From the NCBI GenBank assembly GCA_052139695.1, contig JBKQWF010000309.1, forward strand, positions 7,829-71,828: a stretch of DNA of 64,000 nucleotides, given 5' to 3'. This DNA is from Limisphaerales bacterium. GTDB taxonomy: Bacteria; Verrucomicrobiota; Verrucomicrobiia; Limisphaerales; Palsa-1400. Shown here piece after piece: positions 34,969 through 59,001 of the stretch; positions within the stretch are counted from its first letter, which is position 1, and each line of letters begins with the position of its first letter. A model generated the notes under the pieces. The model did not search any database and was not told the origin of the DNA. It saw only the letters and a list, made by a program, of their open reading frames with translations. The position numbers and the translations under genes are program-made.

Positions 34969-35277
34969 GCGGAGCGAAAGTAAAAGGCGTCTCCCACGAG
35001 GTCGAGAAAAATCGCTGAGATGAAGGAGAAGGAACGAGTCCAACTTTTGTATCGAATTGCAATGGCTTGTAGCGCAACAAGTTGCACCCGAGCCATCGGC
35101 CACCGGCTGGTGAGGAACTGCATGGAGCAAGTAGGCATCGCAAGCGGAATCCTAGCAGGCGTTTGGATGATCTTTATTGACCGGAGCGTTCCGTAGAGGT
35201 CAGATTCTTGTAATCGCCGACTTTCCGGGTAGCATCGATTTCAAAAACAATGGCAGCGGCAAGCGGAAGGTCCTTGT

Positions 35278-36012
35278 ATGCCTGAAACAAAATACATCTT
35301 GATTTTGGCGAATTCGATCCGCCCGGGAGGACATTGCGTGGCAGGAAAAATGGCGACCCCGCTCGCCAATGGGCTTTATGACGTAAGTGAGCGTTGGATT
35401 CGCCTTGTTGATCCGAAGAATTCGAAAGGAGGCGTTCCCTACGAATGCACTCTGTGCCAAGGAACCAAACCAGTTCGACCTCTTGACATTATCAAGGTTG
35501 TATTATTGGAATCATGTGGCAATCCAGATCATCCAGAAGATTGGTATTTTGATCGGTCACAGTCTTGGCAAGTCGAAAGTAATTTTGCGAAAAGATCTCT
35601 TCCAGCGATCATGGACACGCCCGCAACTCTTTGGCATGATGGTATCGCATCTAACGCCGTATCTGCTGGCTTCCTCCGCACCATGAAACCGCATCCATTC
35701 AGCATTTGCCTCATTTCGGCCCCAGCAAAGATGGACTTTTCTTTTTGGAAAAAACCCTTCCGGGACCATAATACCGGTCAGGACAAGACTAAATATGTTC
35801 GTGACTTATCATTTAATCGCGCCGGTATTTATCATGAGTTTTCTGTTACCGACCCAGAATTCATGAAGCGCCATAAAATATGGGACCGAATGACCGAGAT
35901 GCCGCAGATTATGAGAATCACGGATACGTCCAATTATTTTCTCTGTTTGAGCCTTGGGCTGGCATTTAACGAACGCCAATATAAAATTAGCGCAACTATT
36001 TTTGAGCCGTGA
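35278..36012 (+). CDS. Uncharacterised 244-aa protein, first gene of the DUF488 cassette
   Basis: MPETKYILILANSIRPGGHCVAGK..., strand-rich, with cysteines at GGHCVAG and CTLC. I recognise no family by eye. Lower GC than the surroundings. Its stop overlaps the next start (TGATG at 36010-36014). Confidence 0.6.
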   Translation: MPETKYILILANSIRPGGHCVAGKMATPLANGLYDVSERWIRLVDPKNSKGGVPYECTLCQGTKPVRPLDIIKVVLLESCGNPDHPEDWYFDRSQSWQVESNFAKRSLPAIMDTPATLWHDGIASNAVSAGFLRTMKPHPFSICLISAPAKMDFSFWKKPFRDHNTGQDKTKYVRDLSFNRAGIYHEFSVTDPEFMKRHKIWDRMTEMPQIMRITDTSNYFLCLSLGLAFNERQYKISATIFEP

Positions 36013-36608
36013 TGCGCGAGCTTTTTACAATCGGCCATTCGACGCTGCCTTGGGAACAATACTTGGAACTGTTGTTGCAACACCGCATCGAAGCCATCGC
36101 GGACGTGCGGAGCAATCCTTACAGCGCCCGCTTTCCCCAATACAATCGCAGAAGCCTGGATCGTGCATTGCGGGCTGCGAGCATCCGTTACGTCTTTCTG
36201 GGCGACGAACTGGGCGCGCGTCGTAACGAGCGTGATTGCTACGTTGAGGGCGTTGCCCGTTATGATCGGATCGCCCAGACATCGGCGTTTCGCGCAGGAC
36301 TCGAGCGCGTGCGAAACGGCGTTGCACGCTTTCGCTTGGCCCTGATGTGTGCAGAGAAAGATCCACTGGAATGTCATCGAACCATCTTGGTTTGTCGCCA
36401 GTTCCGAAACGATATGGACATTCGCCACATCTTGGGTAACGGCAGCCTTGAATTCCACACTGATTCAGAAACCCGCTTGATGGCCGAGGAAAACGTCCCG
36501 GGTAATGATCTTTTTGCTGCGCGCGAGGAATTGATTGCGAGAGCTTATGAGCGGCGCAGCGACAAGATTGCCTACCACGAGTGCGTTGAACCAGCCATGA
36601 ATACTTGA
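36012..36608 (+). CDS. DUF488 family protein (long form)
   Basis: LFTIGHSTL, ADVRSNPYS, YVFLGDELG and MCAEKDPLECHRTIL (the C-x-E-x5-CHR hallmark). I take the ATG at 36012 rather than the GTG at 36009. Confidence 0.8.
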   Translation: MRELFTIGHSTLPWEQYLELLLQHRIEAIADVRSNPYSARFPQYNRRSLDRALRAASIRYVFLGDELGARRNERDCYVEGVARYDRIAQTSAFRAGLERVRNGVARFRLALMCAEKDPLECHRTILVCRQFRNDMDIRHILGNGSLEFHTDSETRLMAEENVPGNDLFAAREELIARAYERRSDKIAYHECVEPAMNT

Positions 36609-36611
36609 TTT

Positions 36612-37067
36612 ATGCCAGCAGAACCCATCTACGTTTTCACGGTCGGATTCACCAAGAAGACCGCCAGCGTTTTTTTTGAGAAACTGCGCGCTGCCAGCAT
36701 TAAGCGCGTGGTAGATGTCCGGCTAAACAAGGTTTCGCAACTTGCCGGTTTCAGCAAGCGTGACGACTTGAAATATTTTTTGAAGGAGATTCTTGACGTG
36801 GAATACGTTGAAGCTCCGTTGCTCGCCCCCACGCAACCGCTCCTGGACGCCTACAAGAAAAGCAAAGGCCGGTGGGAAGATTATGAGCGGGACTTTCTCC
36901 GATTGATGGAGGAGCGCCACATCGAGGACAAGATTGACCCGTCCTTGTTGGCTGGCGGATGCCTTTTGTGCAGCGAGGACAAGCCTCACCAGTGCCACCG
37001 CCGCTTGGTCTTGGAATATCTGCAAAAAAAATGGGGAGGCAATCTCGCGATTAAGCACATCACCTAA
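36612..37067 (+). CDS. DUF488 family protein (short, YeaO-like form)
   Basis: IYVFTVGFTKK, VVDVRLN and LLCSEDKPHQCHRRLV. Starts 3 nt after the preceding stop. Confidence 0.75.
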   Translation: MPAEPIYVFTVGFTKKTASVFFEKLRAASIKRVVDVRLNKVSQLAGFSKRDDLKYFLKEILDVEYVEAPLLAPTQPLLDAYKKSKGRWEDYERDFLRLMEERHIEDKIDPSLLAGGCLLCSEDKPHQCHRRLVLEYLQKKWGGNLAIKHIT

Positions 37068-37072
37068 ATCAA

Positions 37073-37099
37073 GCATGCATGCATGCATGCATGCATGCA
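37073..37099. repeat. (GCAT)6.75 self-complementary tetranucleotide microsatellite
   Basis: gcatgcatgcatgcatgcatgcatgca, 5 nt after the stop at 37067 and between convergent genes. Confidence 0.95.
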
Positions 37100-37171
37100 C
37101 TCATAATTGTTACCGACCTTAGACGGTTCAGTAACCAAGAAACTGTTTGCGCCGCTACGTCTGCCCTGCCC

Positions 37172-57046: not shown

Positions 57047-58504
57047 ATGTGGGTTGAAGAATTGAATATCGAGAATATCAAGTGCTTTGAAAAGCTGACG
57101 CTCCGTTGCGGAGACAAGGATGGGGCATTTAAATGGATCACTCTTTTGGGAGAAAATGGGGTCGGAAAGAGCACTGTTCTTCAAGCGTTAGGTTTGTTGC
57201 TTGCCGGCCCAGATGGCGCAAACCAACTGCTCACCAAGCCACTTGGCTGGCTTCGCGACGAGCGTCGCCAAGGAAAACTTTCCGCAAGAATTCACAAAGG
57301 AGAGAGGGACCCAGGCGAATATGGCGCGACAAAGAAAAGAGCAGTATTCAATTTCACTTACTTCATTACAGGACCAGAAAAGATACAGATTCGCAGCAAG
57401 ACATATACAGAGCCTGCTATTGTTCCCAACTCAGATAGAACCCTCTCATGGCTCCGGCAGAATGCATTTCAAGCGAAAGGAAAAGGATGGTTTGCTTCTG
57501 GTTACGGCGCATTTCGCCGCCTGACAAAGCGTAATCAGGTTATTGTGCCCTCGTTACAAACCCCGGAGCGATTCACGGGCTTTCTTGCACAGTTTAATGA
57601 AGACGAGCCTTTGGCCGCTTTTGAACAATGGTTTGTTCATCTCGACTATCGTATGGCTAAAACGGACGACTTGGCGAAGAGGCAACAGGCACTTGGAGTT
57701 GCGGCGATCAATCGAGTTTTACCCGAAGGCGCTAGGTTCGACTCTGTCCGCACCGACGGGAAAATCCTTTTCGACGTCAATGGGCAAAAGGTGGCTACGC
57801 TCAACTTAAGTGATGGTTATCGGAGTGTGCTGGCGCTTGCTGGGGATTTGATTTGGAGACTCTTCATGGCTTTCCCGGATAGCGACGACCCGATGCAGGA
57901 ATTAGGCACTGTCCTGATAGATGAGCTGGATATTCATCTCCATCCAGTCTGGCAGCGGCAAATTCCGGGGATGCTAAGAAAGCTCTTCCCGAATTTACAG
58001 TTCATTGTTTCCACCCACAGCCCCTTTATTGCGTCTGGTGCCGGAGAGGATGCCGTTACTTACCGGCTGAACTGGGCTGGAGATAAGATTGAACATACAA
58101 AAATAATCAATATGGCTTTTATGAGCGTCGAGAAGGTGCTCCAAAGCGAGGCTTTTGAGGTTGTATCACTTTTCTCGAAGGAAACTCAAATGAGAATTGA
58201 TCGCTACTACACGCTCAGGAAAAAATCGAAGAGGACCCCTCAAGAAGAAAATCAGCTAGAGATGGATATGCCGATCGTGCGACAGGCAATCGGGCCTGAT
58301 GCGCCAAAGAGTGCCTTGGAAAATAAAATGGATCAGTATTTGAGCAAAATGCTAAAACGATCCGAGTTACTCGAACAAGGAAGCCCAGTGTGTTGGCGGA
58401 TAATGAAACGAAGTGGAAAAGGGACATCCGTTCGGCACTCAGCGATGCCACACGAAAAAATGCACAGGAAAAATACAAACACAAAGATATCAAAGAAGCG
58501 CTGA
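57047..58504 (+). CDS. ptuA: ABC/AAA_15-21-type ATPase, Septu PtuA-like
   Basis: N-terminal LNIENIKCFEKL, Walker A LLGENGVGKST, Walker B/D-loop VLIDELDIHLHP, and H-loop VSTHSPFI. Low GC (~42% in a sampled line). Confidence 0.7.
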   Translation: MWVEELNIENIKCFEKLTLRCGDKDGAFKWITLLGENGVGKSTVLQALGLLLAGPDGANQLLTKPLGWLRDERRQGKLSARIHKGERDPGEYGATKKRAVFNFTYFITGPEKIQIRSKTYTEPAIVPNSDRTLSWLRQNAFQAKGKGWFASGYGAFRRLTKRNQVIVPSLQTPERFTGFLAQFNEDEPLAAFEQWFVHLDYRMAKTDDLAKRQQALGVAAINRVLPEGARFDSVRTDGKILFDVNGQKVATLNLSDGYRSVLALAGDLIWRLFMAFPDSDDPMQELGTVLIDELDIHLHPVWQRQIPGMLRKLFPNLQFIVSTHSPFIASGAGEDAVTYRLNWAGDKIEHTKIINMAFMSVEKVLQSEAFEVVSLFSKETQMRIDRYYTLRKKSKRTPQEENQLEMDMPIVRQAIGPDAPKSALENKMDQYLSKMLKRSELLEQGSPVCWRIMKRSGKGTSVRHSAMPHEKMHRKNTNTKISKKR

Positions 58505-59001
58505 TAGGCATGTTCCACGGAAAATGTGCGTATTGTGAAAGTTACATCACTCATATTGATTTCGGTCACATCGAGCATTTTAAGCCAAAATGCACGCCTA
58601 CCTATTATGAACTGGCTGTTGACTGGGGAAATCTGCTTCTGGCTTGTGGTCGCTGCAATGGAGCGGAAAACAAAGGGACTAAGTTCCCACTTGCTAACAA
58701 AGGTGGGCCGCTAGTGAACCCCGTCACGGAGGACCCCTCCAAACATCTGGGTTTTGATTTTGATCCGAAGTTGAAATTAGCAAATGTCCTTGGGATATCC
58801 AAACGCGGTGAGACCACTCGGAAGACTCTCGGTCTCAACAGGCGGGAGTTGTTACAGCATCGGTCAAGATTTGTCACAAAACTTTGGGTGATTGCTCGCC
58901 ATTACAACAACGATAACGAAGCTCGTGAAATTATTGATTCGGCAATCTGCCCCCAAGAGGAATACTCCGCGTTTGCCATCGCGCTTAAGAAATCGCTGTA
59001 A
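58390..59001 (+). CDS. ptuB: HNH endonuclease, Septu PtuB-like (TIGR02646-like pattern)
   Basis: GKCAYCES...GHIEHFKPK...WGNLLLACGRCNGAENKG. The GTG start at 58390 overlaps ptuA by 115 nt in another frame. Confidence 0.7.
   Translation: MLADNETKWKRDIRSALSDATRKNAQEKYKHKDIKEALIGMFHGKCAYCESYITHIDFGHIEHFKPKCTPTYYELAVDWGNLLLACGRCNGAENKGTKFPLANKGGPLVNPVTEDPSKHLGFDFDPKLKLANVLGISKRGETTRKTLGLNRRELLQHRSRFVTKLWVIARHYNNDNEAREIIDSAICPQEEYSAFAIALKKSL

Follow-up and report, generated by a model that had tools for sequence, protein, structure and literature searches.

A DuOB-DUF488-DUF488 gene cassette of a Limisphaerales bacterium matches the candidate phage defence system PDC-M45

The DNA analysed here is a stretch of 64,000 nt (hereafter the window, meaning the whole stretch) from a Limisphaerales bacterium of the phylum Verrucomicrobiota. 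It contains a compact + strand cassette of three genes (35278-37067), encoding a protein with a dual OB-containing domain (DuOB) followed by two paralogous DUF488 proteins. The cassette almost certainly belongs to PDC-M45, and the trio is a further copy of an already catalogued, uncharacterised system, not the discovery of a new one. The features of the locus are listed below, each with the lines of evidence in brackets (AF2, AlphaFold2 structure prediction; aa, amino acids).

35131..35277, + strand: 5' intergenic region, divergent from a PD40 gene (sequence)
35278..36012, + strand: gene 1 (PDC-M45A), DuOB protein, 244 aa (Pfam, PADLOC, AF2, Foldseek)
36012..36608, + strand: gene 2 (PDC-M45B), DUF488 protein, 198 aa (Pfam, PADLOC, AF2)
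36612..37067, + strand: gene 3 (PDC-M45C), DUF488 protein of the 'active N3' subclade, 151 aa (Pfam, PADLOC)
37073..37098, no strand assigned: (GCAT)6 self-complementary microsatellite (sequence, folding)

The original prediction, made from the sequence alone, had described three packed + strand genes with a 1-nt overlap and a 3-nt gap, and its coordinates for the open reading frames (ORFs) are exact: genes 1 and 2 share one base within TGATG at 36010-36014, and genes 2 and 3 are separated by 3 nt (36609-36611). The start codon of gene 1 is consistent with the N-termini of its homologues and lies 7 nt 3' of a Shine-Dalgarno-like GGAAGG (35265-35270); a scan for the sigma-70 consensus found no site 5' of the gene. 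The start of gene 2 is placed at ATG 36012 rather than GTG 36009, because the N-termini of its homologues also read M-x-ELFTIGHS.

Assignment to PDC-M45 is carried by PADLOC hidden Markov model (HMM) matches of all three proteins. Gene 1 matches PDC-M45A (PDLC04653, E 1.7e-27, residues 1-243 aligned with profile positions 1-224 of 230), gene 2 matches PDC-M45B (PDLC04657, E 9e-76, 252 bits), and gene 3 matches PDC-M45C (PDLC04658, E 7.9e-67, 221.5 bits). The genes follow one another directly as A>>B>>C on the same strand, so that the locus has the same three genes in the same order as the cassette definition FAM_01974>>FAM_00888>>FAM_01897, each with its own HMM match. PDC-M45 is listed as CAS_00153 ("Assign as candidate PDC-M45") in Table S8 of Payne, Hughes, Fineran & Jackson 2024 (bioRxiv 10.1101/2024.01.29.577857), a study that obtained 145 phage defence candidates by collecting genes lying inside BREX, DISARM and type I restriction-modification (RM) systems, and whose authors describe these candidates as untested. 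Relatives of the cassette adjoin RM, Hma and DISARM loci, as in that defining screen, whereas the window copy is solo, surrounded by housekeeping genes and outside any other system. The trio had originally been put forward as a candidate for an undescribed system; since Pfam and PADLOC already hold its families and the cassette itself, that claim of novelty was wrong. No mention of PDC-M45 was found in the searchable literature, while one preprint describes the E. coli DUF488 protein YeaO as being without literature and notes that DUF488 occurs near prophages and defence islands.

Gene 1, which had been thought to match no family, is a full-length member of the DuOB family (PF22557, E 4e-29), scoring 102.5 bits against a gathering score of 27, with residues 5-241 aligned to profile positions 1-210 of 210. 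Its AF2 model (predicted local distance difference test, pLDDT, 93.7; predicted template modelling score 0.90) is all-beta and composed of two halves, and its sole PDB neighbours in Foldseek are tandem-OB binders of single-stranded DNA (ssDNA), namely RPA70, Deinococcus/Thermus SSB, POT1, TEBP, HIN-200 and LEF-3. Model and neighbours both point to two OB halves. RPA70, Deinococcus/Thermus SSB, POT1, TEBP-alpha and HIN-200 likewise have two OB folds per chain; unlike these proteins, DuOB always travels with DUF488 enzymes.

Among 75 diverse members of the DuOB family, S13, E87, W119 and D192 are invariant, and C20, W40, R42, W97, S225 and K236 are nearly so. To judge from this alignment, the conserved aromatic and basic residues would suit base stacking and phosphate contacts, and the protein has an isoelectric point of 8.7. 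Two cysteine motifs had been singled out earlier: that in GGHCVAG (C20) is indeed conserved, but CTLC is not, its first Cys varying even among close homologues and neither of its Cys residues falling in the conserved columns of the wider family. A candidate Zn site formed by C20, H85, H186 and C223, all invariant in close homologues, was rejected because H85, H186 and C223 vary in the wider family. An exhaustive profile search gives 1888 DuOB clusters at 50% identity, mostly stand-alone proteins of ~235 aa. Going by the fold resemblance, the conserved Trp, Arg and Lys residues and the helicase fusions described below, gene 1 most likely encodes a putative single-stranded nucleic-acid or DNA-end binding subunit, providing specificity.

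Genes 2 and 3 both match DUF488 (PF04343, cut-off 22.2), with E 4e-24 and 86 bits for gene 2, and E 3e-20 and 73.6 bits for gene 3. The DUF488-N3a profile (PF22751, 'active DUF488-N3 subclade', cut-off 27) tells them apart, gene 3 passing with 35.2 bits and gene 2 failing with 13.1 bits. Gene 2 contains the motifs TIGHS, DVR and C113-x-E115-xx-P-xx-C121-H122-R123 as well as a helical C-terminal extension of ~60 aa, while gene 3 contains TVGFT, DVR and C120-x-E122-xx-P-xx-C128-H129-R130. Their identity of 24% marks them as old paralogues. The CxExxPxxCHR motif is kept in 87/87 gene 2 ORFs and 97/98 gene 3 ORFs (184/185 together), and the residues after strand 1 are G-H-S in 82/87 of the former and G-F-T in 81/98 of the latter. 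Retention of the motif in both paralogues suggests two different enzymes, probably both active, rather than an active/inactive couple, and the old functional pair of DUF488 proteins proposed originally is borne out by the Pfam matches, the low identity and the shared motif. Gene 3 is the most conserved component of the cassette, with identities of 69-97% among the 120 best database clusters.

The AF2 model of gene 2 (pLDDT 88.9) has an alpha/beta fold, in which strand 109-113 ends in the invariant C113 and is followed by loop 114-121, containing E115 and P118, and by helix 122-131, opened by C121-H122-R123. Residues invariant between the paralogues (G8, D31-V-R33, C113-x-E115, P118, C121-H122-R123 and H139) sit at strand ends. 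In this model, the arrangement of a strand-end Cys, a loop and an Arg-bearing CHR helix is that of cysteine phosphatases and rhodaneses. The top Foldseek matches are Cys-dependent tyrosine phosphatases, 8dhj (E 4.7e-3, TM 0.30, where TM is the template modelling score) and 3ro1 (TMt 0.50), both weak, and P-loop kinases rank close behind. Searched by Foldseek against viral structures, the same model had no significant match; even a bona fide phage DUF488 reached only E 0.43, indicating that fold searches are insensitive for this model.

DUF488 reportedly belongs to the rhodanese-phosphatase superfamily, DNA-end processing roles in conflict systems are said to have been predicted for it, and relatives that act on RNA and sugar phosphates, RapZ-C among them, are said to share one clade with DUF488. 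T4 Pnk, PNKP-type 3'-phosphatases and cysteine phosphatases provide a functional analogy, since the editing of terminal phosphates decides the ligation of DNA or RNA ends. Genes 2 and 3 share with the cysteine phosphatases a predicted cysteine-based active site, but they have no sequence or significant structural homology to any of these enzymes and no kinase or ligase partner, and their activity is one that we infer.

The trio is conserved as a unit. In a DuOB-centred scan (one genome per species, 19 loci), every intact DuOB gene has gene 2 and then gene 3 directly downstream in the same order, and the exceptions (L001, L030 and L031) are decay products. A gene-3-centred scan matched at least 586 species genomes. 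Among its best 80 loci, at least 58 have all three genes, with 45 in the order DuOB-gene 2-gene 3, 12 in the order gene 2-gene 3-DuOB (all cyanobacteria) and one with a distant DuOB; a further 15 have genes 2 and 3 but no profile-detected DuOB, four of them at contig edges, and seven have gene 3 alone. Four of the apparent no-DuOB loci have a ~230-aa neighbour with a weak Pfam DuOB match (three above the cut-off, one below). The loci of the two scans come from Verrucomicrobiota, Alpha-, Beta-, Gamma- and Deltaproteobacteria, Cyanobacteria, Acidobacteriota, Planctomycetota, Spirochaetota, Nitrospirota, Armatimonadota, Eremiobacterota and others. The scans in both directions agree with the earlier description of a self-contained trio and show that the module is co-inherited.

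The components of this module evolve at different rates and are in places fused. In the 55 matched loci, gene 1 has a median identity to the window of 27%, gene 2 of 49% and gene 3 of 62%, and gene 1 is the most diverged of the three in 51 of the 55. By analogy with immune sensor subunits, DuOB would be expected to change this fast if it met foreign molecules that vary or if inhibitors were directed against it. Two proteins, P0384 and P0405, are fusions of DuOB with a gene-2-type DUF488, the former being 52% identical to gene 2 along its whole length, C-terminal extension included, and since such fusions exist elsewhere, the three proteins probably form one complex. DuOB also occurs at the C-terminus of a DEAD/ResIII helicase (P0410) and of a UvrD helicase (P0413). 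A seeming fusion of genes 2 and 3, P0248 (308 aa, labelled DUF488 and DUF488-N3a), was discarded, as it consists of gene-2-type sequence duplicated in tandem within one protein, which probably arose during assembly.

Several individual loci depart from the common pattern. The decayed copies comprise L001 (3548-4003), which retains just the 5' 459 nt of gene 1 (82% nucleotide identity to the window) without genes 2 and 3, and which, though from the closest genome, shows no flank synteny with the window; L030 (8001-8147), in which only the last ~50 codons of gene 1 stand ahead of genes 2 and 3; and L031 (8001-9226), with the same remnant of gene 1 and with gene 3 split into two ORFs. In L003 (8723-9779, on a 1.29-Mb ENA contig) genes 2 and 3 are missing from the gene calls after DuOB, but intact ORFs for both score identically to those of L004, making this an annotation gap and not a loss. 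The permuted cyanobacterial loci (L057, L060, L063, L071, L079, L082, L085, L090-L092, L109 and L110) have a much more divergent DuOB, scoring ~63-89 bits with the DuOB profile used here. In the verrucomicrobial loci L016-L018 and L027, DuOB is closer to the window (55-57%) than gene 2 is (53-54%), a reversed gradient that suggests, from sequence identities, exchange or recombination of the DuOB gene between cassettes.

Gene neighbourhoods were compared across 24 loci (23 distinct related loci plus the window, with 8-kb flanks), and known or candidate defence genes are immediate neighbours in at least 7 of them; the 135 flanking proteins were pooled for the PADLOC scan, which gives top families only. 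L008 has a type III RM system with Abi_2, followed by GmrSD and a Gabija-like pair, and L004 has an integrase with RM-like ResIII, AlbA_2 and methylase genes. L013, L021, L023 and L024 have an HmaA/HmaB-type SNF2 helicase with a DUF1156-type methylase (Hma/DISARM-like, E down to 1e-149), L024 additionally containing Hachiman HamB (1143 bits), and L029 has a HEC-05-like gene. On the Agrobacterium conjugative plasmid pAt1D1108a, the trio lies among HORMA/AAA genes, a helix-turn-helix-ImmA pair, TcmP/DUF5131 and an integrase. The original suggestion of a conflict or nucleic-acid-processing role remains the best reading, given the PADLOC match and these neighbours.

In the window itself, the upstream neighbours are a PD40 beta-propeller protein (adjacent), an FGE-sulfatase-domain protein and an MBOAT protein, and the downstream neighbours are a CBS-domain protein (adjacent), GH5, SufE, TatD and DnaJ. 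The two genes flanking the cassette, encoding the PD40 and CBS-domain proteins, are unrelated to the trio and on the opposite strand, as had been noted before. There is no integrase among the eight genes around the cassette and no tRNA gene in the window. Gene 1 has a GC content of 0.459 and a GC content at third codon positions (GC3) of 0.457, against a mean GC of 0.578 for the window and a mean GC3 of 0.684 (standard deviation 0.064) for its 41 called genes, and just 0.5% of 735-nt segments are as AT-rich. Genes 2 (GC 0.551, GC3 0.598) and 3 (0.522 and 0.671) are near host values, so that the lower GC first ascribed to the cassette as a whole is real but uneven, residing mainly in gene 1. 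The low GC makes this solo copy look horizontally acquired and, with the remnant and decayed copies elsewhere, supports its description as an accessory-looking islet. The sole other region of the window with comparably low GC is an islet at 57047-58998 (+ strand, GC 0.46-0.49, GC3 ~0.50), which is a Septu system composed of PtuA (AAA_15/21 ATPase, PADLOC E 3e-170) and PtuB (HNH nuclease, PADLOC E 2e-41; the match begins at profile position 54, and the true start may be further upstream). This islet fits the idea that AT-rich islets of the host genome are imported defence cargo.

The preferred explanation is that the cassette is a solo PDC-M45 copy in which DuOB directs cysteine-dependent enzymes to process nucleic-acid ends, and as a whole it is given a probability of about 45%. 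In this proposal, the three proteins, which are produced jointly through translational coupling, would probably act as one complex. DuOB would bind single-stranded nucleic acid or exposed DNA ends, conferring specificity, and would place both enzymes on foreign DNA, at its termini or single-stranded regions, as it invades or replicates. Genes 2 and 3, two non-redundant DUF488 enzymes with the same putative active site, would rely on the cysteine at the strand end to take off or transfer phosphate or sugar-phosphate groups at these termini, such that the treated ends could no longer be ligated, extended or packaged. Taken by itself, a role in conflict or defence has slightly better than even odds, whereas end processing of nucleic acids by Cys catalysis is doubtful. 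A more speculative version, in which mechanistically new immunity would arise from a hypervariable tandem-OB sensor of phage ssDNA or genome ends directing two DUF488 enzymes to strip or transfer terminal groups, is a shade more doubtful still; such immunity could operate in concert with adjoining DNA-cutting Hma or RM systems.

Several points weigh against this explanation. The structural similarities to phosphatases and to ssDNA binders are weak (E ~1e-3 to 5e-3, TM 0.2-0.5), those of gene 1 reaching at best E 1e-3 with TM 0.2-0.3 and sequence identities of 6-12%. The canonical CX5R motif is absent, the motif present being C-x7-CHR with nine residues from the first Cys to the Arg, and no similarity emerged when the DUF488 and E. 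coli RapZ profiles were aligned with hhalign (probability 0.2%). L013, L023 and L024 belong to one close Hma lineage and count as one event, not as independent ones, and the ordinary metabolic neighbours in the window and in several other loci (L005, L012) mean that the defence association is only partial. The high conservation of genes 2 and 3 across phyla suits repair at least as well as an effector, and solo gene 3 relatives that neighbour a UvrA paralogue or a glyoxalase/Ble-like gene fit repair too. Finally, no biochemical or phage-plating data for the trio system or for any DUF488 protein were found in the searchable literature, in agreement with the original remark that DUF488 has no established biochemical role.

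The best-surviving alternative, although unlikely, is DNA repair or damage tolerance, in which DuOB would act at breaks in the cell's own DNA and the DUF488 pair would clean blocked termini (for example 3'-phosphate, 3'-phosphoglycolate or 5' adducts). Cross-phylum conservation of genes 2 and 3 is as expected for enzymes with a universal chemical substrate, and the many loci without defence neighbours, the window included, are in keeping with repair, as are a solo gene-3-type DUF488 on the IncC plasmid pEc78, 3' of a UvrA paralogue and among formaldehyde-detoxification genes, ~50%-identical copies on many large enterobacterial plasmids, and the solo copy of L011 abutting a glyoxalase/Ble-like gene. 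Against this, the divergence of DuOB (median identity 27%, sometimes barely detectable by Pfam) is unusual for a housekeeping repair factor, and the patchy distribution, the remnants, the low GC, the recurrent siting within or next to RM, Hma, Gabija, Hachiman and CBASS-like loci, and the recovery of the family in a guilt-by-embedding screen all argue for defence.

Somewhat less likely again is an RNA or nucleotide module with an abortive-infection, RNA-repair or signal-degrading role, in which the OB protein would bind tRNA or mRNA ends and DUF488 would act on RNA termini (2',3'-cyclic phosphate, 2'-phosphate) or on sugar phosphates derived from ADP-ribose or NAD. OB folds bind RNA as readily as DNA, the relatives said to belong to the clade of DUF488 act on RNA and sugar phosphates, and a plasmid variant of the cassette has, beside DuOB and gene 3, a gene in place of gene 2 for DUF4326, a family called the sister of DUF488 and predicted to process the ribose-linked phosphates of ADP-ribose. 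However, every structural neighbour of DuOB binds ssDNA, its fusion partners are DNA-type superfamily 1 and 2 helicases, the neighbouring systems (RM, Hma, GmrSD, Gabija) target DNA, and no RNA ligase, kinase or cyclase partner occurs in any locus examined. A very improbable last reading, in which the system would be undescribed and gene 1 would fall outside all known families, could draw on the lack of an NCBIfam model for gene 1 or gene 2, the lack of relatives in PDB sequence searches with each of the three proteins and the gene 3 profile, and the label 'hypothetical protein' given to gene 1 homologues in source databases, but is refuted by the full-length DuOB match, the size of the DuOB family, the PDC-M45A/B/C matches in order and the entry in Table S8.

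No activity has been measured for DUF488, although the domain is very widespread, close relatives of gene 3 alone occurring in at least 586 species genomes. The trio is a good experimental target for assigning a function to DUF488, even if this instance is itself unsurprising to a specialist. The window contributes a clean, compact, solo copy of PDC-M45. The comparison adds one fast-evolving binder with two slow, predicted-active enzymes, the fusion of DuOB to an enzyme in nature, the permuted order in cyanobacteria, the DUF4326 plasmid variant, and solo copies by a UvrA paralogue on clinical IncC-type plasmids, points which together narrow the hypothesis to nucleic-acid end processing. The last four of these, as well as the strict co-inheritance seen from both directions, the motif kept by both paralogues and the identity gradient of 27, 49 and 62%, may or may not already be in Burroughs & Aravind 2023. 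If the reading as a new form of immunity were true, it would provide the first biochemical function for DUF488, whose occurrences range from E. coli YeaO to fusions with archaeal ParB. The enterobacterial and Agrobacterium plasmid homologues are convenient for experiments.

Some further features of related loci deserve mention. In L113, on the Citrobacter freundii IncP plasmid pLNU-11 (5373-7040), DuOB (28% identical to gene 1) is followed by DUF488-N3a and then DUF4326, with no gene-2-type DUF488, and a group II intron and recombinases lie near the cassette. In L115, on the E. coli IncC plasmid pEc78 (3152-6426), a solo gene-3-type DUF488 (~50% identical) is located directly 3' of the UvrA paralogue in the frmR/fghA formaldehyde-detoxification region; copies at a similar level of identity are common on large conjugative plasmids of enterobacteria (131 matching plasmids in total, with the context checked for pEc78 only). 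The solo copy of L011 (7624-8456) is 69% identical and adjoins the glyoxalase/Ble-like gene. In L013/L014 (8456-13260), the trio is followed by a same-strand DUF3644 gene and by a cluster encoding QueC, a fusion of PfkB with a nucleoside deoxyribosyltransferase, and an Ogg-HhH glycosylase, which may represent 7-deazaguanine-type DNA modification or defence.

The palindrome reported at the end of the cassette is present as a perfect (GCAT)6 repeat (37073-37098), which starts six bases past the gene 3 stop codon, between the convergent gene 3 and CBS gene, and occurs once in the window. Its absence from all 112 related loci searched (0/112) identifies it as a local feature, outside the conserved module. 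A sub-threshold Rfam match to the type-P3 twister ribozyme covers the same place (37060-37134, - strand, 25.3 bits against a gathering score of 39.9), but several conserved positions and outer-stem pairs misfit, and this candidate was set aside as probably a chance effect of the long stem. The repeat folds into an 11-bp hairpin (-18.9 kcal/mol, z -3.4) that is terminator-like on the - strand, i.e. the strand of the convergent CBS gene, and is a possible bidirectional terminator.

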